Shown piece by piece: positions 1,531-59,084 of a stretch of DNA of 64,000 nucleotides. The translations under genes and the position numbers were made by a program. Each line of letters begins with the position of its first letter. The first letter of the stretch is position 1. The notes beneath the pieces were generated by a model. That model saw only the letters and a program-made list of their open reading frames with translations. It did not search any database and was not told the origin of the DNA. The stretch is taken from assembly GCF_018350175.1 (NCBI RefSeq), contig NC_058368.1, forward strand, positions 31,126,001 to 31,190,000, written 5' to 3'. This DNA comes from Felis catus. Taxonomy: Eukaryota.

Positions 1531-2083
1531 TATCAAAGCAAAACTTGCACTGGACAAATAGGCAAGGAAGACTTTATTGAAGACTATGATAATAAAGGAG
1601 GGAGATGAACTCAACTTTAGTGAAACCAAAATCAGGAGGGTTTTTAAGCACTGTGTTGGGGAAACATACTGGAGGACAGTGTGGGAACTTGATCAATGGG
1701 AGGTATCGAGCACATTGAGCTGTTCCTGTGTTTGCAAGTATTTTTCTCTGTGATTGGGCATCTGTGACTGCTAACTGGCACCCACCCTAAGTTAGCCTCC
1801 GATCTTAGACTTAGCCTAAAATGGGCTCCTGCCTCCCCACAGAGACAGAGCGATAGAGGTACTGTCTTCTTTGGGGCTTAGATTTTAAAAAGATGGTTTT
1901 CAGGGCATTGGGAAAAGCCTCTCTGTGTTGAAAAACCTGCAAGAGGCTGGGAGAAAGCTTATATGCTATCAAAAATGCAGAGAAAATTTACAGTTGCAAG
2001 TTTTCTGAAGTAAATGCTCCAGGGAAAGGGAAACCTGAATAAAGTGAGGCAAGGTAAGGGGAATGTTAAGATCATCTTTGTCA
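1531..2083 (-). mobile_element. Solo ERV1-class LTR (MER67/MER31-like)
   Basis: Minus strand starts TGACAAAGATGATCTTAACATTCCCC...GAGCATTTACTTCAGAAAACTTGCAACTGTAAATT and has AATAAAGTCTTCCTTGCC near its end; 4-bp near-TSD ccac/ccat; subfamily from memory. Confidence 0.7.
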
Positions 2084-2327
2084 CCATTGTTTGTGGAGAG
2101 AAAGATTGGATGTTGACAAATAAACTCTGAGGAGGAGAGGGGAGGAGACTGTAGTCACCAACTTTCCAAAAAGGAAAAAAAGAGAGACTATGGAGGTCCC
2201 TACACTTTTATGTTAAGGGCAAGGTCAAAGTAGTAGTCTTTTATATAGTTCATAGATCAGAAGTTTGTATATTTATTCAGATATATGGATAATGACTAGC
2301 TTTGAAATGGTTATGAATTCCAGTCAT

Positions 2328-2518
2328 AGAATCAGACTGATTATAGTTAAAATCCTGTTCTTGAAATTTATTTGCTGTGAAATCTGGAAAATGTAGTTAA
2401 TGTTTCTACTATGAATAGATAATTATACCTATCTCATGAGTATATTGAAAGAACTAAATGAAATGTGCTAAAGAACTTTTTCCATACAATGCTTGGCACT
2501 GGTAAATGCTCAATAAAG
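2328..2518 (+). mobile_element. MIR (ancient SINE), degenerate
   Basis: Similar to the MIR core and 3' end (TACCTATCTCATGAG...TAAATGA...TGCTTGGCAC..TAAATGCTCAATAAA). Confidence 0.7.
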
Positions 2519-3398
2519 GGCATGTACTTTATGAGTACCCAAATGTGGTATCAGCCCCTAATTGGGCTGTTGCCTACTATTTTTCTCATTTCTTCATCTC
2601 AAACCCAGCAAATAAGCACATTATGTTAAGTCCTGCTCTTGGGGGAAAGATATAGTAATCTCTTGGATCATATCATGCTAATTTAACTATTAGCATTTAT
2701 CATTATTATTCATTATACTTTACATGTAATCTATAAAATGATAGATTATCACAGGTGGAAATGATCTTAAATGGACTTACTCCAAAATATAAGAAGGTTT
2801 TTACTTCTTCTCTGGAACACTCTCATTCTTTTAGCCTTTAAAAAATATTATTTGAATAGTTATTTTCATCAAAGCTCTATATATCCTTATTACCTTATTA
2901 TTTGAATCTTTAGGGAAGCTGCATATTACATAGGCACTAAAGACTTTAGAAGGAAAAATCAGTAGAGCAAAGTCAAACTCATTGCTCAAAATAATCCCCA
3001 ACTTTCCTCAGGCCACCAGAAGAAGAAATTTTTCTTCATAATAACAAGAGTCCTGCTATTCTATGAACCATTTTTCCAAATGGAAAATTTTTTGGATTTC
3101 TAGCTTGCCTTAAATGCCAAGCTTCCTGCATGACTACTACTGATTGCCTCAGCAGGAAAGATGTCAAATAACCTCTCAGCCTAGAAAGTAAGGCCGTATG
3201 TAGCTCTTGGTCAATTACTGGAAACCAAGGTCGACTAAAATACCAGTACAAATATGATCTGGATATACTGCCTCAAATTATGTTTTCGTTTCATTAATTC
3301 TCATCGAACAAGGAAATAATTATTTTACAAATGCCTACTATGTTCTCAGTACTTTTTGATGTATTTTTATGATATCACCAAAGAGAATGGTTGATATT

Positions 3399-3759
3399 TA
3401 CTATAGATTGAATGTTTGCATCCCCATAAAATTCATATATTGAAATCCTAACCCTTAATGTATTAGGAGGTGGAACTTTTTTGGGGGGTGGGGAATGGTT
3501 AATATTAGGTCAGAGGGTGAAGACCTCAAATGGGGTTAGTTCTCTTATAAAAGAGATGTCAGAGAGCTCCCTTATCCCTTCTGCACTATGAGAACACAGG
3601 AAAAGATGGCCATTTATGATTCAGGATACAAGCCCTCACTAGACACCAAATCTGCTGGTGCCTCAATCTTGAACTTCCTAGCCTCCAGAACTATGAGAAA
3701 TGTTGTTTATAATCCACCCAATGGTATTTTTGCTACAGCAGGCCAAAAGGACTATGACA
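3399..3759 (+). mobile_element. MaLR solo LTR, MLT1A-like
   Basis: TACTATAGATTGAATGTTTG start, CACCAAATCTGCTGGTGCCT..CTAGCCTCCAGAACT, end GACTATGACA; 5-bp TSD ATATT (3394-3398, 3760-3764). Confidence 0.9.
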
Positions 3760-10690: not shown

Positions 10691-11336
10691 CTCTTGGTGT
10701 TCATTCAGTTTTTATTACATAGATACATTTATTTATTTAATTTATTTATTTGACAGCTTCGCTATATTATACTCCATGAAACAGCTCTTGCTCATTATTC
10801 ATGTTTGTTGCCCGAACCTGAAGTCACTAGAAGGACTTAAAAAATATGTGTTGAATTAGTAAATATGAGTTGAATGCAGAATACAGTCAGTTAAGATTCC
10901 TTTAAGAGGTTATTATCTGACTAAGAATGGCTTTTGATTCCTGATTTACAAGCAATAATTTTTTTTAAATTGTTGCAACACAGACATTCAAACAAAGAAA
11001 GACTAGTGTGTGTGTGTGTATGTATGTATGTATGTATGCATGTATGTATGTATTTTCAGTATGATAAATGTAATCTTTACTCCTCACCCCTATTTCACCC
11101 CACCCACCTCCCCTATGGTAACCAGCAGTTTGTTCTCTATAGTTAAAAGTTTCCTGGTTTGTATCCTTTTTTTTCTCTTTGCTCCTTTGTTTTGTTTCTT
11201 AAATTCCACATATAAGTGAGATCATATGGTATTGGTCTTTCTCTGACTGACTGATTTTGCTTAGCATTATACTCTCCAGCTGTATCCATGTTGTTGCAAA
11301 TGGCAAGATTTCGTTATTTTTATGGCTGAATAATAT

Positions 11337-11374
<38 letters not shown>

Positions 11375-11460
11375 TACCACCTCTTTATCCATTCATTCTT
11401 CAGTGGACACTTGGCCTACTTCCATAGTTTGGCTATTGTAGATAATGCTGCAATAAACAT

Positions 11461-11683
11461 CCAAGTAATTCATATATTGCATACTTTTGTACTGCGCTCA
11501 CCTAGTATGTCCTCATTTATTCCACTAATTCATAACTTTGACTCATAATTGTACATTGCGTGTTCCCAAGTACTATGTATAATCGTGCATCACTGATCTT
11601 TCTCATGAATATTAAGCATGTACATATATCTATTGATGTTACATAAGACATACTATGTATAATCATGTATTACTGATCTTCCC
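11461..11683 (+). other. NUMT: nuclear copy of the mitochondrial control region (5'/ETAS domain with 80-bp RS2-type repeat)
   Basis: TAATTCATATATTGCA..TACTGCGCTCACCTAGTATGTCCTCATT and TACTATGTATAATCGTGCAT..CATGAATATTAAGCATGTACA..TTACATAAGACATACTATGTATAATC match felid/carnivore D-loop motifs as I recall them; exact 80-nt period (11571 vs 11651); interrupts colinear L1 sequence. Confidence 0.9.
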
Positions 11684-11690
11684 TCTAGTG

Positions 11691-11897
11691 TTTTTTTTAA
11701 AGTTTTTAAATTTATTTTGAGAGAAAAAGAGTGTGAGTGCGCAGGCAAGGGGCAGAGAGAGAGGGAGAGAGAGAATCCAAAGGCGGCTCCACTCAGTGCA
11801 GAGCCCAATGCAGGGCTCAAGTCCATGATTGTGAGATCATAACCTGAGCAGATAGCAAGAGTTGGACTCTTAACTGACTGAGCCACCCAGGAGACCC
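11691..11897 (-). mobile_element. CAN-SINE nested in L1, abutting the NUMT
   Basis: Reverse-complement SINE: T-rich tail, (GA) tract, ends CTGAGCCACCCAGGAGACCC. Confidence 0.95.
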
Positions 11898-13097
11898 TGT
11901 ATTAGTACTTTGTATTTGTAATGTAAATACCCAGTAGTATGATTCCTGAGTCATAGCGTAGTTCTGTTTTTATATTTTGAGGAATGACCAAAGTGTTTTT
12001 CACACTTGCTGCACCCAATTGCACTCCCACCAACCAGGCAATACTTGTTTCTTGTGTTTTTGATTTTAGCCATTCTGACAGGTGTGAAGTGCTATCTCAT
12101 TGTAGTTTTGATTTGCATTTCCCTGAGAATGAGTGATGCTGCACATCTTTCCATGCATCTGTTGGCCATATGTATGTCATCTTTGTAGAAATGTCTGTTC
12201 ATGTTTTATTTAGATTAATTACATTATTTTAATTAGGTTTTTGATTTCGGGGTATTGAGTTGTATCAGTTCTTATATATTTTCAATACTAACACTTTATT
12301 GGATATGTTGTTTGCAAATATCTTCTCCTACTCATTAGGGTGACTTTTAATTTTGTTGATTATTTCCTTAACTGTGCAGACGCTGTTTGTTTTGACATAG
12401 TCCCAATAGTTTATTTTTGCTTTTATTTCCCTTGCCTTAGGAGACATATCCAAAAATTGTTGCTCCAAACAATGTCAGAAAAATTACTTCCTGTGCTCTC
12501 TTCAAGCATTTTTATGGTTTCAGGTCTCCCATATAGGTCTTTAATCCATTTTGATCTTATTATGTGTATGGTGAAAGAAAGTCCAGTTTCATTCGTTTAC
12601 ATGTGACTATCCAGTTTTCCCAATACCATTTATTGGAGATGGTCTTTTTTCCATTGTATATTCATTCCTACTTTGTCAAATATTAATTGATCATATAATT
12701 GTGGGTTTATTTCTGGGTTTTCCTTTCTATCCCATTGATCTGTGTCTATTTTCATGACATTGCCATACTGTTTTAATTGTTATGGCTTTGTAGCATAACT
12801 TGAAATCTGGAATTATGATGTCTCCAGTTTTGTTTTTCTTTTTCAAGATTGTTGTGGCTACACAGGTCTTTTGTGATTCCATACAAATTTTAGGATTGTT
12901 TGTTCTAATCCTGTGAAAAAAGGTGTTGGCATTTTTATAGTGATTGTATTACATCTGTAGATTTCTTTGAGTAGTATAGACATTTTAACAATATTTGTTC
13001 TTCCAATTCATGAGCGCGGATATCTTTCCATTTCTTTGTGTCATCTTGAATTTCTTTCACCAGTGTTTTGTATAGAATAAGTATTAACACTTACTTA

Positions 13098-16300: not shown

Positions 16301-16430
16301 CTATCACAGGCAGTGTTTGGTCCCCAGCAGAGATGGGATGCATTTTAACAAGATGTGTGGTGGTCTGCTTGTGAAATGAGACCTATCCCCACTGCTGCTG
16401 GAACTGAGGCTCTGCAAAATATGCAGATCA

Positions 16431-16666
16431 GGAGCGCCTGGGTGGCTCAGGTGGTTAAGCATCTGACTTCGGCTTAGGTCATGATTTCACAGCTCAGGAG
16501 TTTGAGGCGTGAGTTAAGCTCTGTGCTCAGAGACTGGAGCCTGCTTGGGATTCTGCGTCTCCCTCTCTCTCTCTGCCCCTCCGCCACTCATTCTCATTCT
16601 CTCATTCTCTCTCTCTCTCTCTCACTCTCTCTCTCTCTCAAAAATGAACGTCAAAAATTAAAAAAA
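16431..16666 (+). mobile_element. CAN-SINE nested in L1 5'UTR
   Basis: GGAGCGCCTGGGTGGCTCAG head; near-TSD AAAA(T/C)ATGCAG(A/G)TC at 16416-16429 and 16667-16680. Confidence 0.95.
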
Positions 16667-18295
16667 AAAACATGCAGGTCGGAAGATGTGATGTTGGCAG
16701 TGTTTCCACTGGTCTTGTGGGGGAGGGGCTCATAGCAAGGGGATAAGACAAGATTGAAACTGAAGGATGGATTTCTGGAAGCTGTGGGGTGTCAGGGGCA
16801 ATGCTTAGTGCAAGCATGTTAGGTTAAGAGTGTGGACAATGCTGGTTCCTGCAGATGGCCCTTGCTTATGTTGGGCAATAGGGAGGGAAACGGTGACTGC
16901 AAGCTCCTTTCTTCCTAGAGGGGTCTCCCTGTGATTCCTGTCACTGATTTGAGTAAATCACTCTCCCTCCTGTCTGCCCCTGTTTTTCAAATTGATGGTT
17001 CTAAGCTGTATCTGCATGGGTTGTTTGTCCTGATCTCTCTAAGAGTGCAAGGATTCTGCTTCCTAATGCCCTTCAGGCTCTCCCAGAGCCAATCATGCTG
17101 ATTTTTAAATTCCAGGCTTTAAGTCCCACCAGTTATAAGAACTCATGAAATTCAGCCCCTCTTGCTTTCAAAGGCAAGTGTTATGGGGATTTGTCCTCCC
17201 TATTACTGGGGTCCTCAATGTGAAAGTCTGTTTTCACCCTTTTCTGTGCCACTGGCTCCCTCCCCACTGTGTACAGATAGGGTCTGTTTCATTCCCAGAC
17301 TGCATCTTTGCACTTCCTACCTTTTTCAATTGGCTTTTTCTCTCCCTTTAGTTCTGGAGTTTGTTCTGCCAGTCTTCATTAATTTTCTGGGCTATTTATG
17401 TTGATGTGAGTGTTATCTAGTTGTATCCTTTGAATGATGTGAGCTTAGAGTCCTCCTACTCTGCCAACTTCCCAGCCAGCCTGTGTGTATTTAAAAACAA
17501 AAATATGCTGTAAGTCATGTTTCTAATCCTTAAAGTATAATAAAAATATTTTAGTAGATGATACGTAGCATTTTGACATAAAAAAATTCAACATATTATT
17601 GGAATATGTTAGTGGTGAGGCTGCTGTTTTGATTTGTACATTGATGAGTACTGGAAGAAAATTAAGGACAATATCTCATAATATTCACTTTGTGTCTTTT
17701 TTATTAACAAACATGTTTTCTAACAAGCATGGCATGGCATTACATTGTAGAAATGACTACATTCATTGATATAATACACAATAGCACATGTAGTAGTAAA
17801 GAAGAGTTCTGAATTCATTTAATTAACCGATGAGATATATTAGATGGACATTCAACATTCTGCTCAAAATAAAAATTAAACAGATTGATTATTCATTTAC
17901 ATATATTTGTAAAATATGTAGAGAAGAGAAAATCTTTGCCCTTGGTTATTCTATTCTGGAAATTGAGCCAAATTAACTAGTTTAAAATTTGTGATATTTC
18001 AATCTGGGTTACATTCATTTTTAAATTTTCATGAAAAAATGGCTTCTGCTACAAATTCTGTTTAAATTAGTTTGCTTAAGTTACCCAATACTTGTGTTTG
18101 GACATGTTAAACTCTTGTTCTCTTTCTCCAAATCTGTAGAAATGACTTACTACTTTTTGTTAAAAATAAAGTGACAAGCTATGTGTGGGTTGAGACTTTC
18201 TTCTGCTCCATTGATCCGTGTGTTTATCCTTAGACAAACACAACACTGTTTGATGCAGTTGCTTCACAGTAATCTTGAAATCATCCAACTCTGTC

Positions 18296-18298
<3 letters not shown>

Positions 18299-18340
<42 letters not shown>
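18299..18340. repeat. (TG)21 microsatellite at the L1 tail
   Basis: Direct reading. Confidence 0.98.
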
Positions 18341-18344
<4 letters not shown>

Positions 18345-18832
18345 AATACCAATATAATTAACATACAGTGATATAGTAGTTACAGGTGTACAATGTAGTG
18401 AATGAACAATTCTATACCTTACTCAGTGCTCATCACAATAAGTGTACTCTTAATCCCCTTTGCCTATTTAACCCATTCCCTCTACCCACCTCTCCTATGC
18501 TAACCATCAGTTTGTTCTCTATATTTAAGAGTCTGGGTTTTTTGTTTGTTTTTTTTCTTTTTCTTTTGTTTCTCAAACTCCACATATGAGTGAAATAATA
18601 TGGTATTTATTTTTCTCTGACTCACTTATTTCACTTACCAGTGTACCCTCTCGATCAATCCTTCCTGTTGCAAATGGCAATATTTCATTCTTTTTTATGC
18701 CTGAGTAATATTCCATTATATATATCCTCTTCTTTATCCATTTATCTTTGGATGGACTCTTGGGTTGCTTCCATAATTTGGCTATAAATCATGCTCCAAT
18801 AAACATAGGGATAAACATGTTTTTGAATTAGT

Positions 18833-19064
18833 TTTTTTTTTTTTAAAGTTTATTTATTTATTTTGAGAGAGAGTACACATGAGCAGGGGAGGGGCAGAGA
18901 GAGGGAGAGAGAGAGAATCCCAGACAGGCTCCACAGTGTCAGCGCTATCAGCGTGGAGCTTGATGCAGGGCTCAATGCAGGCTCCAACTCACAAACCATG
19001 AGATCATGACTTGAGCCAAAATTAAAAGTCAGAAGCTTAGCCAACTGAGCCACCCAGGCACCCC
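18833..19064 (-). mobile_element. CAN-SINE nested in L1 3' end
   Basis: TSD begins TGAATTAGT (18824 and 19065); contains short internal duplications. Confidence 0.95.
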
Positions 19065-19136
19065 TGAATTAGTGTTTTCTTATTCATTGGGTAAATACCC
19101 AGTAGTGTGATTCCTGGATCATAAGGTAATTCTATT

Positions 19137-19326
19137 AATTTTTAAAAATATTTATTTATTTTTGAGGGGGGGTAGGGGTAGAGAGAGAGAGACACAGAAT
19201 CTGAAGCAGGCTCCAGGCGCTGAGCTGTCCACACAGAGCCCAACGCAGGGCTTGAACTCACAAACCATGAGATTATGACCTGAGCCGAAGTCAGTCACTC
19301 AACTGAATGAGCCACCCAGGTGCCCC
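19137..19326 (-). mobile_element. CAN-SINE nested in L1
   Basis: Perfect 14-bp TSD AAGGTAATTCTATT (19123-19136, 19327-19340). Confidence 0.97.
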
Positions 19327-22300
19327 AAGGTAATTCTATTCTTACTTTTTGAGAAACATGCATACTGTTTTCCACAGTAGCTGCACCTGCTTGCATCCCA
19401 CCTGTGGTACAATACTTGTTTTTCTTGTGTTTTTTGTTTTAGCCATTCTTACCCATGTGAGATGTTATCTCATTGTGGTTTTGTTTTCATTCCCTTGATG
19501 ATTAGTGATATTCAGCATGTTTTCACGTGTCTGTTGGCCATATGTATGATTTATTCGGAGAAATGTCTCTTCATATTTCTGACCATTTTGTTTTGTCTTC
19601 TGCCAATTTTTGATTAGATTTTTTGTGGTGTTCAGTTGTATAATTCTTACATATTGTTCAGTTATATAATTCTTTTTCAGTTGTATAATCTTTATATAAT
19701 TCTTATATATTTTTATACCTATTATTGAATATATCATTTACAAATATCTTCTCCCATTTATTATGTTGCCTCTTACTTTTATTGATTGTTTGTATGGAAG
19801 CTTTTTATTTTGTTGTAGTCCCAGTAGTCTATTTTTGCTTTTGTTTATTTTGTCTCAGGAAACATATATGTTGCTATGGCCAATGTCAGGGAGATTACTG
19901 CCTATGATCTCTTTTTAAACATTTATGGTTTCAGGTGTGACATTTAGGATTTTAATCTATTTTTGAGTTTATTTTTATATATGGTGTAAGAAAATGGTGC
20001 ATTTTCATTCTTTTGCATGTAGTTGTCCATTTTTCCCAGCACGATGTGTTGAAGAGACACTCTTTTTGCCATTGCATACTCTTGCCTCTTTAGTAATAGA
20101 CTAATTGACCACACAATCATGGATTTCTTTCTGGATTCTTCATTATGTTGATCTATTTTTCTATTTTTGTGCCAGTACCATACTGTTTTGATACTACCAC
20201 TTTGTAGTATATCTTGAAATCTAGCATTGTCATACCTCCAGTTGCTCTTCTTTTTAAGATTGTTTTGACTTTGGGAGTCTTTTGTGGTTGCATACAAATT
20301 TATGGTTATTTGTTCCAGTTCTGGGAAAAATGCTGTTGGTATTTTGATTGGGATTTCATTAAATCTGTAGATTGCTTTGGGGTAGTATGGACATTTGAAT
20401 AATATTTTTCTCCCAATCCATGAGCATGGAATATCTTTCCAATTTATTGTGTCATATTTAATTTCTGTCCTAAATGTTAAATGGTTTGCAGAATACAGGA
20501 CTTTTAATCCTTGGCTAAGGTTATCCCTAAGTATTTTATTATTTTTGGTGAAATTGTAAATGGAACACTTTTATTAATTTCTCATTCTGCTACTTCTTGA
20601 TTAGTGTATAGAAATCCAATGGATTTCTATGTATTGATTTTGTATTCTGTGATCTTTCTAAGCTCATTTATTAGTTCTAGTAGTTTTTAGGTGAAGTCCT
20701 TAGGATTTTCTATATTTAATAATATTTCATCTGCAAATAGTGACAGCTTGACTTCTTCCTTACCCATGTGGATGCTTTTTGTTGCTTTTCTTGTTTGATT
20801 GCTGTGACTAGGACTTCCAGTACTATGATGAACTAGAGTGATGAGAGTGGACATTCTTGTCTTGTTCCTGATCTTAGAGGAAGAGCTCTCAGTTTTTCAC
20901 CATTATGTATGTTAACTATGGTTTTTCATATGACCTTTAGTATGTTGAGGCATGTCCCCTCTAAGTCTACTTTGTTGAGCTTTTTTTTTTTCTTATCATG
21001 AATGGATGTACTTTGTCAAATTTTTTTCCTGAATCTATTGAAGTGATCACATAGGTTTTATCCTTTCTCTTATTGATGTGATGTATCATGTTGATTGATT
21101 TGTGAATATTGAACCCTTGGATCCCAGGAATAAATCACACTTGATTGTGGTGAATGGCTTTTTAAATGTATGGTTGGGTTCAGTTGGCTATATTTTCTAG
21201 GATTTTTGCATCTGTATTCATCAGAGATAACAGCATGTAATTCTCACTTTTTGTAATCTTTTTATCTGGTTTTGGTATCAGGGTAAATCTGGCCTCATAC
21301 AATGAATTTGGAAGCTTTCCTTCCTCTTCTAATGTTTTGAATAATTTGAGAAAAATATTTAAATATATGGTAAAATTCACCTGTGACTCCATCTATCCCT
21401 GGACTTTTGTTTCTTGAGAGTTTTTTGATTACTGATTCAGTTTTATTGCTGGTGATTATTCTGTTCAAGTTTTTTCATGTCTTCCAGATAAAGAGAAGAG
21501 TTATATGTTTCTGGGAATTTCTCCATTTCTTCTAGATTTTCCAGTTTGTTAGCATATAATTTTTCATAATATTGTATTATAATCCTTTGTATTTCTGTGA
21601 TGTCATTTTATTTCTCCTCTTTTATTTCTCATTTGTTTATTTGAGCTCTGTCTTTTCTTTTTCTTTTTGGATGTTTTGATGAGTCTGGCTAAAGTTTTAT
21701 CAGTTTTCTTTATCCTTTCAAAGAACTAGCTTCAGATTTCATCGATCTGCTCTATTACTTTCATAGTTTCTATTTCATTTATCTTTACTCTAAGTGTTAT
21801 TATTTAATTCCTTCTACTGGTTTTGTTTGTTCTTTTTCTAGCTCCTTTAGGTGTAAGGTTTTGTTATTTATTTGAGTTTTTGTTTTGTTTTGTTTGCTTG
21901 TTCAAGTAGGTCTTTATTGCTATAAACTTCCCTTTTAGAACAGCTTTGCTTTCATTCCAAAGATGGATTGTTCTATTTTCCCTTTCATTTGTCTCTATGT
22001 ATTTTTTTTTTTAATTTTCTCTTTCATTTCTTGTTTGAACCATTCATTGTTCAGTAGCATGTTATATAAAATTCATATATTTGTGTTCTTTCCAGTTTTT
22101 TTCTTGTGATTGATTTCTAGTTTATAGCATTTTGGTTGCAAAAGATGCATGGTGTGACCTTAATATTTTTAATTTGTTGAGACTTGTTTTGTGCCTTAAC
22201 ATGTGATCCATTCTGGAAAATATCCCATGTGCACTTGAAAAGAAAGTGTGTTCTGCTCTTTTAAGATGGAATGTTGTGAATATATCTGTGAGAACTATCT

Positions 22301-36530: not shown

Positions 36531-39500
36531 TTTTTTTGTTTGTTGGTTTTTGTCTTGTTTTAATTCAACTAAATAGAGTTACATTAGTTTGAGGTGTACA
36601 GTATAGTGATTCAGCAATTATATACATTATTCAGTGCTCATCCTGAGTGTACTCTTAATCCCCTTTACCGATTTCACTTATGCCCACCTACCTCCCCTCT
36701 GGTAACCAGAGGCTTGTTCTATATAGTTTTCTTGGCTTGTTTCTTTTTCCCTTTGTCTTGTGTTCTAAATTTCACATATGAGTGAAATCATATGGTCTTT
36801 GTCTTTCTCTGACTTATTTCACTTAGCATGATACCCTATAGATCTGTCCATGTTGTTGCAAATAGCAGGATTTTGTTCTTTTTTATGGCTAATATTCCAC
36901 TGTGTGTGTGTGTGTGTACAACACCTCTTCTTTATCCATTTATTTTCTGATGGACATTTGGGATGTTTCCATAATTTGGCTATTGTAAATAATGCTGCAA
37001 TAAACATAGGGGTGCATATATCCTTTTGAACTAGAGTTTTCATATCCTTGGAAAATACCCAGTAATGCAATTGCTGGATCATAGGGCAGTTCTATTTTCA
37101 ATTTTTTGAGGAGGCCCTACACTGTCTTTCATAATAGCTGCACCAGTTTGCATTCCCACCAATAGTGCACCAGGGTTTCTTTTCCTCCACATCCTCGCCA
37201 ACATTTGTTGTTTCTTGTGCTTTTGGTTATAGTCATTCTGATAGGTGTGAAGTCTATATGACTTCTTAGAAGAATTGTCAATGTCTTCTCCACATTTTTA
37301 ATGGCTGATTTTTTGGTGTTCAGTTGTATACATTTTTATACATTTTGGATACTAACCCTTTATCAGATGTGTCGTTTGGAAATATCTTCTCCCATTCAGT
37401 AGGTTCTCTTTTTGTTTTGTTGATTATTTCCTTTGCTGTGCACATTTTATTTCGATGTGGTCCCAATGGTTTATTTTTTCCTACTCTTTTCCTTGCTTCA
37501 GGAGACATATCTAGAAAAATGTTGCTTGACCGATGTCAGTGTTCTCTTTCAAGATTTTTATGGTTTCAGGTCTCAAATTGAGGTCTTTATTTTATTTTTG
37601 TGAATGGTGAAAGAAAGTGGTACAATTTCATTTTTTTGCATGTGGATGTCCACTTATCCCATCACCATTTTTTGAAGAGACACTCTTTTGCCATTGCATA
37701 TTCTTGCCTCTTTGTCATAGACTAATTGGCCATATAATCATGGGTTTGTTTCTGGGGTCTCTCTTTGTTCTATTGATATATGTGTCTATTTTTTGTGCCA
37801 GTGTGACACTGTTTTCATTAGTACAACTTTGTAATATAACCTGAAGTCTGGAATTGTGATTCCTCCAGCTTTGCTTTTCTTTTTCAAGATTTCTTTGGCT
37901 ATTTGCGGTCTTTTATGGTTCCTAAAATTTTTAGGATTGTTTGTTCTAGCTATGTGAAAAATGTTGGTTTTCAGTAGGGATTGCATTAAATGTGCAGGTT
38001 ACTTTGGGATAGTATAGATATTTTAACAATACCTTTTATTCCAATACATGAGCATGGAATGTCTCCATTTGTTTGTGTCATCTTCAATTCTTTCATCATT
38101 GTTTTATAGTTTTCAAAGTATAGTCTTTCACCTCTTTAAGTATATTCCTAGGTATTTTATTACTTTTGGTGCGATAGGACTGTCTTCTTCTCTTTCTGAT
38201 ACTTCATTAATTGTGTAAAGAAATGCAATGTATTTCTGTATATTGATTTTGTATTGATTTTATATCCTGTGACCTTACTGAACTCATAAGTTCTAATAGT
38301 TTTGGCAGGGGGCAGGAATCTTTAGGGCTTTCTATGTATAGTATCAGGTATTCTGCAATTAGTGAAAAATTTACTTCTTCCTTACCTATGTGGATGTCTT
38401 TTTTTTTTCTTGTCTGATTGGTGTGGCTTAGACTTCCAGTACTATATTTAATAAAAGTCATGAGAGTGGATATCCTTGTCTTATTCCTGATCTTAAGAAA
38501 AGTTCGCAGTTTTTCACCACTAAGTATGATGTTAGCTATGGTTTTTCTATATATGGCTTTATTATGTTGAAGAATATTCCTTCTGTACCTACTTTGTTGA
38601 GGGTTTTAATCATTAATGGATGTTGTACTTTGTCAAATATTTTTTACTATATCTATTGAAATGATTATGTGGTTTTATTCTTTTTCTTATTGATGTGATG
38701 TATCACGTGGATTGATTCAAGAATATTGAACTACACTTACATCCCAGGGATAAATCCCACTTGATCCTGGTGAATGATTTTTTTTACATGAATTGTTGGA
38801 TTCAATTTGCTAATATTTTGATGAGAATTTTTGCATCTGATGCAAATACTTGCATCCAGTATCTCTGATGATTTTGGCCTGTAGTTCTCTTTTTTTGTAG
38901 TGTCCTTATCTAGTTTTGATATTAGGATAATGTTGCTTTCATAGAATGAATTTGGAAGCTCTCCTTCCTATTTTACTTTTTAGAGGAGTTTGAGAGGGAT
39001 AGAATATTAACTATTCTTTAAATGTTTTGCCGAGTTCAGCCTATGAAGCCATCTGGTCCTAGACTTTTGATTGTTGGGCATTTTTTTTTATTATTGATTC
39101 AATTTCACGCTGGTAATTGGTCTGTTCAAATTTTCTGTTTCTTCCTGATTCCGTTTTGGAAGTTATATGTTTCTAGGAAGTCTCTACCTCTTCTAGGTTG
39201 CCCAGTTTGTTGGTATACAGTTTTTCATCATAGTCTTTTGTAATCCTTTGTATTTCTGTGGTGTCAGCTGTTGTTTCTCTTCATTTCTGATTTCATTTAG
39301 AATACTCTCCCTCCCTCTCTCTCTTTTGAGAACTGGCTAAAAGTTTATAAATTTTGTTGATCTTTTCAAAAAACAAGCTTCTGGTTTCATTGATCTCTTC
39401 TATTGTGTTTTAGTTTCTATTTCATTTATTTCTGCTCTAATCTTTATGATTTTCTCCCTTCTAATGGTTTTATTCTTCTTTTTCTAGCCCCTGTAGATGT

Positions 39501-45040: not shown

Positions 45041-46306
45041 CAAAGAAACGGAAAGACATGCCATGCTCATGGGTTGGAAGAATAGCTATTGTTAAAATGT
45101 CTATACTACCCAAAGCAATCTACACATTTAATGCAATCCCTATCAAAATACCAATAGCATTTTTCACAGTTAGAACAAACAATCCTAAAATTTGTATGGA
45201 ACCGCAAAAGACCCTGAATAGCCAAACCAACCTTGAAAAAGAAAAGCAAAGCTGGAGGCAACACAATTCTGGACTTCAAGTTATATTTCAAAGCTGCAGT
45301 AATCAAAACAGTAGGTACTGGCACAAAAATAGACACATAGATTAATGAAACAGAATAGAAAACCCAGAAATGAATCCATAGTTATATGATCGATTAATCT
45401 TCAGTGAAGCAGGAAAGAATATCCAATGGGAAAATGACACTCTCTTCAACAAACGATGGTAGGAAAATTGGACAGCCGCATGCAAAAGAATGAAACCGGA
45501 CCACTTTCTCAGACCATCAAAATGGATTAAAGACCTAAATGTGAGGCCTAAAGTCATTCAAATCCTGAGAGAGAACACAGGCAGTAACTTCCATGACACT
45601 GGCCATAGCAACTTCTTTCTAAATATGCTTCCTGACACAAGGGAAACAAAAGCAACAATAAACTATTAGGACTAATCAAAATTAAAAACTTCTGCACAGC
45701 AAAGGAAACAATCAACAAAACTAAAAGGCAACCTACTGAATCGGAGAAGATATTTGCAGGTTACATATCTAATAGAGGGTTAGCATCTAAAACACATAAA
45801 GAACTTATAAAACTCAATACCCCCAAAATGAGTAATCCAGCTAAAAAAATGGGCAACAGACATTTCTTGAAAGAAAACATCCAGATGGCCGACACACATA
45901 TGAAAACATGATCATCAGGGAAACACAAATCAAAACTACAGTGAGCCACCACCTCACACCTGTCAGAATGGCTAAAATCAAGAACACAAGAAACAACAGG
46001 TGTTGGCAAGGATGTGGAAAAGGGGAACCCTTGTGCACTGTTGGTGGGAATGCAAACTGGGGCAGCCACTGTGGAAAACAGCATGGAGGTTTCTCAGAAA
46101 GTTAAAACTATAACTGCCCTACAGTCCAGCAATTGCAATACCTAGGTGTTTCCTAAAGAATACAAAAATACTAATCCAAAGGGATATATGCACTCTGGTG
46201 TTTATAGCAGCATCATCTACAATAGCCAAATTGTGGGAATAGCCCAAGTGTCCACTGACTGGTGAATGAATAAAGAAGAGGTGGGGGGTGTGTGTACGTG
46301 CGTGTG

Positions 46307-46354
<48 letters not shown>

Positions 46355-57312: not shown

Positions 57313-57362
<50 letters not shown>

Positions 57363-59084
57363 GACACTACATTGTATTTATCTATTCTTCCATTGGACGT
57401 TTGGGCTCTTTCCATACTTTGGCTATTGTTGATAGTGCTGCTATAAACATTGGGGGGCATGTGCCCCTTCGAAACAGCATACCCATATCTCTTAGATAAA
57501 TACCTAGTAGTGCAATTTCTGGGTCATAGGGTAGTTCTATTTTTAATTTTTTTGAGGAACCTCCACACTGTTTTCCAGAGTGGACGCACCAGTTTGCATT
57601 CCTACCAGCAGTGCAAAAGAGATCCTCTATCTCCGCAACCTCACCAACATCTGTTGTTGCCTGAGTTGTTACTGTTAGTCATTCTGACAGGTGTCAGGTG
57701 GTATCTCATTGTGGTTTTGATTTGTATTTCCCTGATGATGAGTGATGTTCATTGAGCATTTTTTCATGTGTCAGTTGACCATCTGGATGTCTTCTTTGGA
57801 GAAGTGTCTATTCATGTCTTTTGCCCATTTCTTCACTGGATTATTTGTTTTTTGGGTATTGAGTTTGATAAGCTCTTTATAGATTTTGGATACTGACCTT
57901 TTATCTGATATGTCATTTGCAAGTATCTTCTCCCATTCTCTCTGTTGCCTTTTAGTTTTGCGGAATGTTTCCTTCGCTGTAGAGAAGCTTTATTTTAATG
58001 AGGTCCCAATAGTTCATTTTTGCTTTTGTTTCCCTTACCTCCAGAGACGTGTTGAGTAAGAAGTTGCTGCAGCCAAAGTCAAAGAGGTTTTTGCCTGCTT
58101 TTTCCTTGAGGACTTTGATGGCTTCCTGTCTTATGTTTAGCTCTTTCATCCATTTTGAGTTTATTTTTGTGTATGGTGTAAGAAAGTGGTCCAGGTTCAT
58201 TCTTCTGCATGTTACTGTCCAGTTTTCCCAGCACCACTTGCTAAAGAGATTGTCTTTATTCCATTGGATATTCTTTCCTGCTTTGTCAAACATTTTTTGG
58301 CTATACATTTGTGGGTCCATTTCTGGGTTCTCTATTCTGTTCCATTGATCTGAGTGTCTGTTTTTGTGCTAGTACCATACTCTCTTGATAATTACAGCTT
58401 TGTAATACATCTTGAAGTCTGGGATTGTGATGCCTGCAGCTTTCTTTTTCAAGATTGCTTTGGCTATTCAGGTTCTTTTCTGGTTCCATACAAATTTGAG
58501 GATTGTTTGTTCTAGCTCTGTGAAGAATGCTGGTGTTATTTTGATAGGGATTGCATTGAATGTCTAGATTACTTTGGGTAGTATCGACATTTTAACAGTA
58601 TTTGTTCTTCCTATCCAGGAGCATGGAATCTTTTTCCATTTTTTTGTGTCTTCTTCAACTTCTTTCATAAGCTTTCTATAGTTTTCAGTGTATAGATTTT
58701 TCACCTCTTTGGTTAGATTTATTCCTAGGTATTTAATGGTTTTTGGTGCAATTACAAATGGGATCGATTCCTTGATTTCTCTTTCTGTTGCTTCATGATA
58801 TGAATAGAAACTGATATATGTGTATAGGAATGCAACTGATTTCTGTGTATTGATTTTATATCCTTAAACTTTGTTGAATTCATGGATCAGTTCTAGCATT
58901 TTTTTTTTGGTGGAATCTGTTGGGTTTTCCATATAGAGTATGATGTCATCTGCAAAGAGTGAAAATTTGACGTCCTTCTGTCCAATATGGATGCCTTTTA
59001 TTTCTTTGTGTTGTCCGATTGCTGAGGCTAAGACTTCCAATACTATGTTGAGTAACAGTGGCGAGAGTGGATATCCCTGTCTTG
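56946..59084 (-). mobile_element. 5'-truncated felid L1 (RT domain to poly-A); 3' part of a SINE-L1 chimera
   Basis: Peptides [29 protein letters not shown] and FDKAGKNIQWNKDNLFSKWCWENW; (TG)n at 57315-57359; T-rich tail. Confidence 0.96.

Follow-up and report, generated by a model that had tools for sequence, protein, structure and literature searches.

At position 11460 of the analyzed stretch of cat DNA, an L1 element on the minus strand breaks off in the middle of its sequence, which raises the question of what has taken the place of its continuation, where that sequence came from and when it arrived. The stretch, called the window below, comprises 64,000 nucleotides (C1:31,126,001-31,190,000) of a 2.43-Gb Felis catus assembly with 71 contigs. 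Our answer, in which we place high confidence, is that positions 11461-11685 are an old and inert nuclear copy of mitochondrial DNA (NUMT), consisting of ~220 bp from the left (TAS/RS2) domain of the control region plus 5 nt of filler. The locus probably received first the L1, then a SINE and finally the mitochondrial fragment, by what would be end-joining capture. The features of the locus are as follows.

11061 to 11460, minus strand: 3' part of the host L1 on the left side of the insert (ORF2 end and 3' UTR remnants), aligning with sister copies as far as 11460
11461 to 11465, unstranded: 5-nt filler CCAAG at the left junction, matching neither the L1 nor the mitochondrial copies
11466 to 11530, plus strand: NUMT segment derived from the control-region 5' end, with homology to mt 16346-16398 and slightly beyond
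11531 to 11570, plus strand: NUMT segment between the control-region start and RS2 unit 1, with ambiguous alignment
11571 to 11650, plus strand: RS2 unit 1, 80 nt, start TACTATG, with 78-81% identity to three units of the mitogenome (C71) and 84-92% to the old NUMT units on C16, C18 and C41
11651 to 11685, plus strand: RS2 unit 2, partial (35 nt), NUMT end ...CTTCCCTC, with mitochondrial homology through CCCTC
11686 to 11690, unstranded: TAGTG, 5 bp of L1 left over from the SINE's left target-site duplication (...TTTTGAATTAGTG in sister L1 copies)
11691 to 11897, minus strand: tRNA-type carnivore SINE, 207 bp, with its poly-T leading on the plus strand, to which 12 other copies of the window align
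11898 to 11907, unstranded: right target-site duplication of the SINE, TGTATTAGTA, L1 sequence that aligns to L1 TGAATTAGTG
11898 to 12600, minus strand: continuation of the host L1 (upstream ORF2 remnants) right of the SINE, aligning to sister copies at 57497-58202, 19330-20014, 45516-45996 and 37053-37632

A control-region fragment within an L1

The homology to five sister L1 copies within the window ends exactly at 11460 (last bases ...GCTGCAATAAACAT), where the initial annotation had placed the stop. Past this break point the sister copies read AGGGGTGCAT..., which is absent here; the continuation is replaced by the 225-bp NUMT, followed by 5 bp of L1 (TAGTG) and the 207-bp SINE, and L1 sequence is found again from 11898. 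The flanks of the NUMT are thus nuclear on both sides, with L1 to the left of 11461 and L1 plus SINE to the right of 11685. When translated from the minus strand, 11202-11384 matched residues 1235-1274 of the 1,275 residues of human LINE-1 ORF2p (E of 1e-5), and the NUMT is located ~86 codons upstream of the ORF2 end. A reading of ORF2 on the plus strand of the host L1 was discarded as wrong, since it was the minus-strand stretch that matched human ORF2p and the plus-strand pieces had no PDB match; Pfam returned nothing meaningful for pieces of the host L1 on either strand. Several L1 copies of the window carry an (AC)n/(GT)n microsatellite at the same position (11339-11374, ~18300-18348, ~46306-46352 and ~57315-57361), so that this L1 3' region may be prone to microsatellites at that point, or the repeat may be a feature of the subfamily.

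Contig C71 is the mitogenome of the assembly, with a length of 17,009 bp, the 12S rRNA at 931-1903, the 16S rRNA at 2042-3606 and the tRNAs in vertebrate mitochondrial order. Two parts of the insert matched its control region. On the left, 11466-11518 was identical to mt 16346-16398 at 41 of 53 positions (77%; E of 4e-8 against the control region alone), a counterpart that begins ~30 nt past the control-region start, after tRNA-Pro. On the right, the 102 nt of 11571-11672 matched the RS2 repeat at 16518, 16598 and 16678, 80 bp apart, with 78-81% identity and whole-genome E values between 7e-15 and 8e-11. Together, these parts run colinear with the left domain of the C71 control region. These results bear out the identification made in the initial annotation, a NUMT of the TAS-bearing left domain with its ~80-bp RS2 repeat: the search for a significant control-region match that it had proposed found one, at three places of C71, colinear and in phase, with E values down to 7e-15. 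The right end that it gave, 11683, is correct as to the mitochondrial homology and slightly short as to the boundary, which runs to about 11685. The 223-bp insert had a single place of 100% identity in the 2.43-Gb assembly, the window itself, and is therefore single copy. The same 53 nt of the left segment were 91% identical to a NUMT on C16 (E of 2e-11, whole genome) and 89% identical to another on C47.

Between the two matching parts, 11531-11570 gave no BLAST match to C71, and neither C71 nor the old NUMTs contain a clear equivalent of it. The segment resembles partly the control-region start and partly a shortened RS2 unit, and a weak repeat with a spacing of 60 nt connects 11459-11474 with 11519-11534. 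The segment could be either a degenerate or deleted first RS2 unit or a local duplication. The Rfam family RF01853 (mtDNA_ssA, mitochondrial DNA control region secondary structure A) aligned to 11517-11618 with 24.4 bits (E of 0.56, below the threshold of 40), one of the two sole Rfam matches at E up to 1 in 11300-12100. On the control region of the assembly itself the same family was likewise below the threshold of 40, with 33.8, 31 and 28.5 bits. The match is independent of the alignments and weakly backs the mitochondrial identity.

The repeat inside the insert was equally clear. Positions 11571-11600 and 11651-11680 are identical at 27 of 30 sites with a spacing of exactly 80, in agreement with the 80-nt tandem unit in 1.4 copies described at the outset; in 1,000 shuffles of the insert, no 30-nt repeat reached 27 matches and the maximum was 23. 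Tandem Repeats Finder did not list the 80-nt repeat, as expected with 1.4 copies. A chance resemblance, by which an AT-rich, low-complexity stretch would merely look like a control region, might be suspected from the GC content of 0.32 and the many TACAT/ATGTA words; we regard its probability as negligible, given the whole-genome E values of the RS2 part against C71 and of the left part against the C16 NUMT, the match of the left part to the control region alone, the colinearity of the two parts, a period and phase identical to those of the mitogenome array and an internal repeat score that none of the shuffles attained.

The RS2 content of the insert amounts to 1.44 units, in phase with the C71 array, and is this small because the captured fragment ends there. 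The array of C71 occupies about 16507-16779, a position that fits the RS2 block of NC_001700 at 16503-16781 (PMC10655372, excerpt). As the fragment ends inside the second unit, its donor mitogenome already had RS2 in tandem, with at least 1.44 units, as had been proposed at first. This adds little, since RS2 arrays have been reported from all feliform families (PMC7886153, excerpt) and Myotis has homologous 80-82-bp repeats (PMC6477160). One 20-mer of the insert, CATGAATATTAAGCATGTAC, recurs exactly in the Asiatic lion's 80-bp RS2 motif as published (PMC3765570, excerpt) and in a control-region repeat of 81 bp from Myotis brandtii (PMC6477160). Two other motifs of the window had no match in the text of papers, and the conserved control-region 20-mer had no match in viral and metagenome contigs, collections that may omit this genome or close ones.

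Junctions, the adjoining SINE and the order of events

At the left junction, the filler CCAAG occupies a position where TTTCA or CTTTCA stands in the old-type NUMTs and the mitogenome, and AGGGG in the sister L1 copies. At the right junction, mitochondrial sequence directly abuts TAGTG. The NUMT has neither a target-site duplication nor a poly-A of its own. Compared with two sister copies (AGGGGTGCAT...TTTTGAAT or ...GAAC), 24 bp of L1 are missing, of which the last five belong to the left duplication of the SINE. The initial annotation had described ~220 bp of non-L1 sequence in place of the L1 continuation; the insert stands, and the 5 bp of L1 (TAGTG) and the adjoining 207-bp SINE had been overlooked. 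What it had said of the missing duplication and poly-A and of a small target deletion holds as well, the deletion being of 24 bp and the nearby poly-T and duplication remnant belonging to the SINE.

This SINE, which we take to be a Can-SINE, lies tail first, with its poly-T at 11691 and its head (...GAGCCACCCAGGAGACCC) ending at 11897. Of the head motif CTGAGCCACCCAGG the window has 11 occurrences, with 0 expected, and Rfam at E up to 1 gave no tRNA match for the element. Its non-CpG divergence from the window consensus, 15.9%, is the highest of the 13 copies (6-15% in the others). Of its target-site duplication, the right copy TGTATTAGTA is present and the left is reduced to TAGTG, directly preceded by mitochondrial sequence.

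In the sister L1 at 18720, another SINE (18833-19065) lies at the identical L1 position (TTTTT/GAATTAGT) and points the same way; its duplication, tgaattagt, is intact on either side. The two SINEs are 69% alike, no more than random pairs, and the shared site appears to be an L1 position that the endonuclease favors, not the product of a duplication. Just downstream of 18833-19065, a further SINE (19120-19330) is nested in the sister L1, with aaggtaattctat on both sides.

The left duplication of the SINE has been cut to 5 bp by the NUMT, and the likely order of insertions is thus L1, SINE, NUMT. The history would have begun with a minus-strand L1 at the locus, into whose ORF2 3' region a carnivore SINE would have entered at a TTTTT/GA site, with a target-site duplication of ~10 bp. 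A later double-strand break just left of the SINE would then have been repaired by non-homologous end joining that captured a fragment of mtDNA reaching from ~30 nt into the control region to the inside of the second 80-bp RS2 unit, with the loss of 24 bp of L1, among them the initial 5 bp of the left duplication of the SINE, and the gain of 5 filler bases. End joining is the accepted route by which NUMTs come to lie in double-strand breaks, whether or not microhomology is involved, and the accompanying deletions are small or absent (PMC2820518, excerpt). The filler, the 24-bp deletion and the lack of an own duplication and poly-A all fit such a process, so that the capture at a double-strand break suggested in the initial annotation appears sound as a mechanism. 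By this order the insert is probably younger than the SINE beside it. No function is expected of the NUMT.

Two other courses of events were weighed. A simultaneous capture of mtDNA during the retrotransposition of the SINE was rejected, as the NUMT lies beyond the poly-A end of the SINE and the duplication remnant and not at the 5' junction. In the other, the same NUMT would have entered the L1 first, possibly before Carnivora, and the SINE would have landed beside it later, a 5-bp deletion then trimming the left duplication. The terminal branch of the NUMT in the tree described below (0.14) is nearly as long as the non-CpG divergence of the SINE (0.159), and the core of the 80-bp unit is conserved far outside carnivores, as the Myotis 20-mer indicates (PMC6477160), so a very old copy might still be recognizable. 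This order, however, takes three events instead of two, and the CCCTC in front of TAGTG continues the mitochondrial unit, so that the NUMT abuts the trimmed duplication exactly, as would be expected if break and resection had taken place next to a SINE already there. We consider it rather unlikely, and the order L1, SINE, NUMT, for which the 5-bp remnant speaks, is the most economical.

Sequence type, possible donors and age

The insert diverges from the mitogenome of its own assembly by 19-23%, and its character states are those of an older type. At a site where the modern mitogenome has CATATACCCATACTG, the insert reads CATACTTTTGTACTG like the C47 NUMT; in the block after GTAC it reads ATATATCTATTGATGTTACA and the modern sequence AGTAGTTTATATATATTACA; and it has TATAATCG versus TATATCG in the modern mitogenome. 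These old-type states (CATACTTTTGTACTG; GTAC-ATATATCTATTGAT...; TATAATCG) are common to the insert and to the NUMTs on C16, C47, C37, C18 and C41. The other control-region NUMTs of this genome are the following.

C22 numt locus: young, 91-96% identity to the mitogenome, 4+ RS2 units
C17: young, 89% to the mitogenome, about 1.5 RS2 units
C16 (>3.1 kb): old and long, 78-79% to the mitogenome, 2 RS2 units
C37 (>3.1 kb): old and long, 71-80% to the mitogenome, 1 RS2 unit
C47: old and long, 81% to the mitogenome, ends in the first RS2 unit
C22:11.86 Mb (C22b): old and long, 79% to the mitogenome, at least 2.3 RS2 units
C18 (106 bp; C18:10937890-10937995): old and short, about 80% to the mitogenome, RS2 only
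C41 (69 bp; C41:13073753-13073821): old and short, 85-87% to the mitogenome, RS2 only
C18:39.48 Mb (~50 bp; C18:39479814-39479858): old and short, about 90% to the mitogenome, RS2 only
C46: intermediate, 87% to the mitogenome, starts in the last RS2 unit and runs into the central domain

Some of these loci have features of their own. The NUMTs at C16:58774315-58777424 and C37:24939674-24942803 contain cytb, control region and 12S and are ~80% identical to each other; the first has two RS2 units and the second one, so the copy number differed among the donor molecules. The NUMT at C47:30618047-30621164 is a composite of two non-adjacent mitochondrial fragments joined together, with a piece of mt 10088-9631 at ~60 bp from a piece of mt 16401-15838, both on the minus strand. 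The short NUMT at C18:39479814-39479858 is also located within an L1 3' region, ~100 bp of L1 away from the site seen in the window.

The best matches of the RS2 unit of the insert were among these old copies, with 92% over 52 nt on C41, 87% over 78 nt on C18 and 84% over 80 nt on C16, and 78-79% to the mitochondrial units. This could indicate a secondary copy, the break having been filled from an older nuclear NUMT like those on C16 or C47 and not directly from the mitochondrion, all the more as the nuclear matches (C41 90%, C18 86%, C16 84-91%) lie above the 78-81% to the mitogenome. Higher identity among old NUMTs is expected anyway, however, since copies in the nucleus evolve at a slower pace than the mitochondrial lineage. 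No donor is closer than 84-92% and none spans the insert (C41 covers 69 bp and C18 106 bp, and C16 is 71% identical overall), nor was any non-mitochondrial flank copied along with it. We therefore hold a nuclear donor to be highly improbable and favor capture from the mitochondrion itself.

An assembly artefact, with a chimeric read or a mis-join that put control-region sequence into the L1, also had to be considered, as mitochondrial reads are abundant in sequencing libraries and the junctions are known from the assembly alone. A chimera with present-day mtDNA would be ~100% identical to the mitogenome of the assembly and is excluded by the 19-23% divergence (77-81% identity in the matching parts). 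The old-type states common to other nuclear copies and the lack of N bases in 11000-12300 also argue against such an error, which we find extremely improbable. A 901-bp stretch, of which the NUMT makes up about one quarter, was found in 24 public runs from 11 studies and 3 coded organisms, a result that cannot be tied to the NUMT itself; at least half of 93 sampled words of this stretch were present in 20 of the 24 runs, with a best share of 0.69. A 22-mer across the left junction had no match in metagenome and prokaryote-genome contigs, collections that may omit this genome or close ones.

To place the insert among these copies, a maximum-likelihood tree was calculated from 12 rows and 132 columns, in which six of the nine inner branches were unsupported. 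The sole strong clade united the mitogenome with the C17 and C22 NUMTs (100/97), with the insert outside it and on the side of the old set in a split with 85/93 support. The terminal branch of the insert was the longest (0.14 versus 0.06-0.09 for the other old NUMTs), which could be noise, a greater age or variants of the donor lineage.

The lion RS2 unit, as printed (PMC3765570, excerpt), differs from the cat unit at one position over a 68-nt core, compared by eye, and between the insert and the cat unit 11 of 69 positions differ. As cat and lion share the modern block and the insert lacks it, the insert most likely left the mitochondrial lineage before the mitochondrial common ancestor of cat and lion. 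The donor was an ancestor of the cat mitochondrial lineage, probably older than that common ancestor and probably within Carnivora, and with ~150 alignable sites and one printed lion unit the insert probably predates crown Felidae. The 15.9% divergence of the SINE is compatible with an old SINE and a NUMT that is not much younger.

The divergence times against which this may be read are 27.4-24.7 Mya for Felidae and Prionodontidae, 29.7-27.0 Mya for Feloidea and Viverroidea, 34.4-31.1 Mya for Nandinia and the other feliforms, and 52.7-46.7 Mya for Caniformia and Feliformia (PMC7886153, excerpt). The ancestral feliform age put forward in the initial annotation is plausible as a hypothesis, and a stem felid age is likewise possible. 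An origin in the early feliform stem or before, close to the age of the SINE, is hinted at by the terminal branch of 0.14 set beside the SINE divergence of 0.159, and would make the insert, with the other old fossils, part of a dated fossil series of the RS2 minisatellite; we think this unlikely. An absolute dating was also attempted and set aside. The neutral rate is ~2.2e-9 per site per year, and with terminal branches of 0.06-0.14 it gives 30-60 million years, an estimate too noisy at ~150 sites that would make the SINE pre-Carnivora.

Meaning and comparison with known systems

Taken alone, the insert is a real but ordinary nuclear mitochondrial fossil that matters little: NUMTs abound, those of the cat have been under study ever since the word was introduced, and RS2 has already been reported from every feliform family. 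Cat NUMTs have reportedly also been catalogued, by Antunes et al. in 2007. Its interest is that of a slowly evolving snapshot of a fast-evolving control-region segment, which together with the other old copies could polarize RS2 and TAS character states in carnivores. Its presence or absence could also serve as a marker in feliform phylogeny, it may give rise to spurious signal when control regions are amplified by PCR or captured, and its junction anatomy is a clean textbook case of end-joining capture next to a retrotransposon. If the early feliform age were true, the fossil series formed by the insert, C16 (2 units), C37 (1 unit), C22b (at least 2.3 units) as well as the short C18 and C41 pieces would show the turnover and copy-number history of RS2 over roughly 30-50 million years of one lineage, read directly. 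Living mitogenomes cannot show this history because of concerted evolution.

The cat nuclear genome also contains a large tandem numt, and the insert had been suspected from the beginning to be separate from it. In this assembly the tandem numt lies on the minus strand of C22:17500083-17556600, in eight copies with a 7,945-bp period and 97% identity to the mitochondrial 12S, plus one inverted copy at 17488521 on the plus strand, also with 97%. The unit as known from the literature extends from the control-region 3' end to COII. At the outer ends of C22:17486927-17558187 we found RS2 and cytb in opposite orientations (17486927-17487547 on the plus and 17557567-17558187 on the minus strand). The published Numt was assigned to chromosome D2, with a 7.9-kb unit in 38-76 copies (Lopez et al. 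1994, cited in PMC10655372 and PMC2820518, excerpts). Both are mitochondrial DNA in the nucleus, but the D2 Numt is a tandem array on C22 with 97% identity, whereas the insert is a single copy of 220 bp on C1 with 77-81% identity and an older sequence type; the 7.9-kb array and the ~95% or higher identity to cytoplasmic mtDNA that mark members of the D2 Numt are lacking in it. The two are thus distinct, as supposed.

With the feliform RS2 array (Hoelzel et al. 1994, as cited; PMC7886153, PMC10655372 and PMC3765570, excerpts) the insert shares the 80-bp period, the position in the left domain and the conserved core CATGAATATTAAGCATGTAC ... ACATAAGACATACTATGTAT...CGTGCAT. Unlike the living arrays, it is a nuclear fossil of 1.44 units, and in the variable block after GTAC and the TATAATCG form it differs from modern cat and lion and resembles older NUMTs. 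Ancient NUMT clades from the felid, feliform and carnivoran ancestors have been defined on cox1, with Felis catus left out (PMC12491944, excerpt). Copies of such ages persist in felid genomes, which makes an old insert unremarkable, although those clades rest on cox1 and the insert contains control region only. Finally, ordinary NUMTs acquired by end joining (PMC2820518, excerpt) are, like the insert, short non-coding mitochondrial fragments with nuclear flanks, neither target-site duplication nor poly-A of their own, a small deletion, a few filler bases and no function, and from these the insert does not differ in any essential way.
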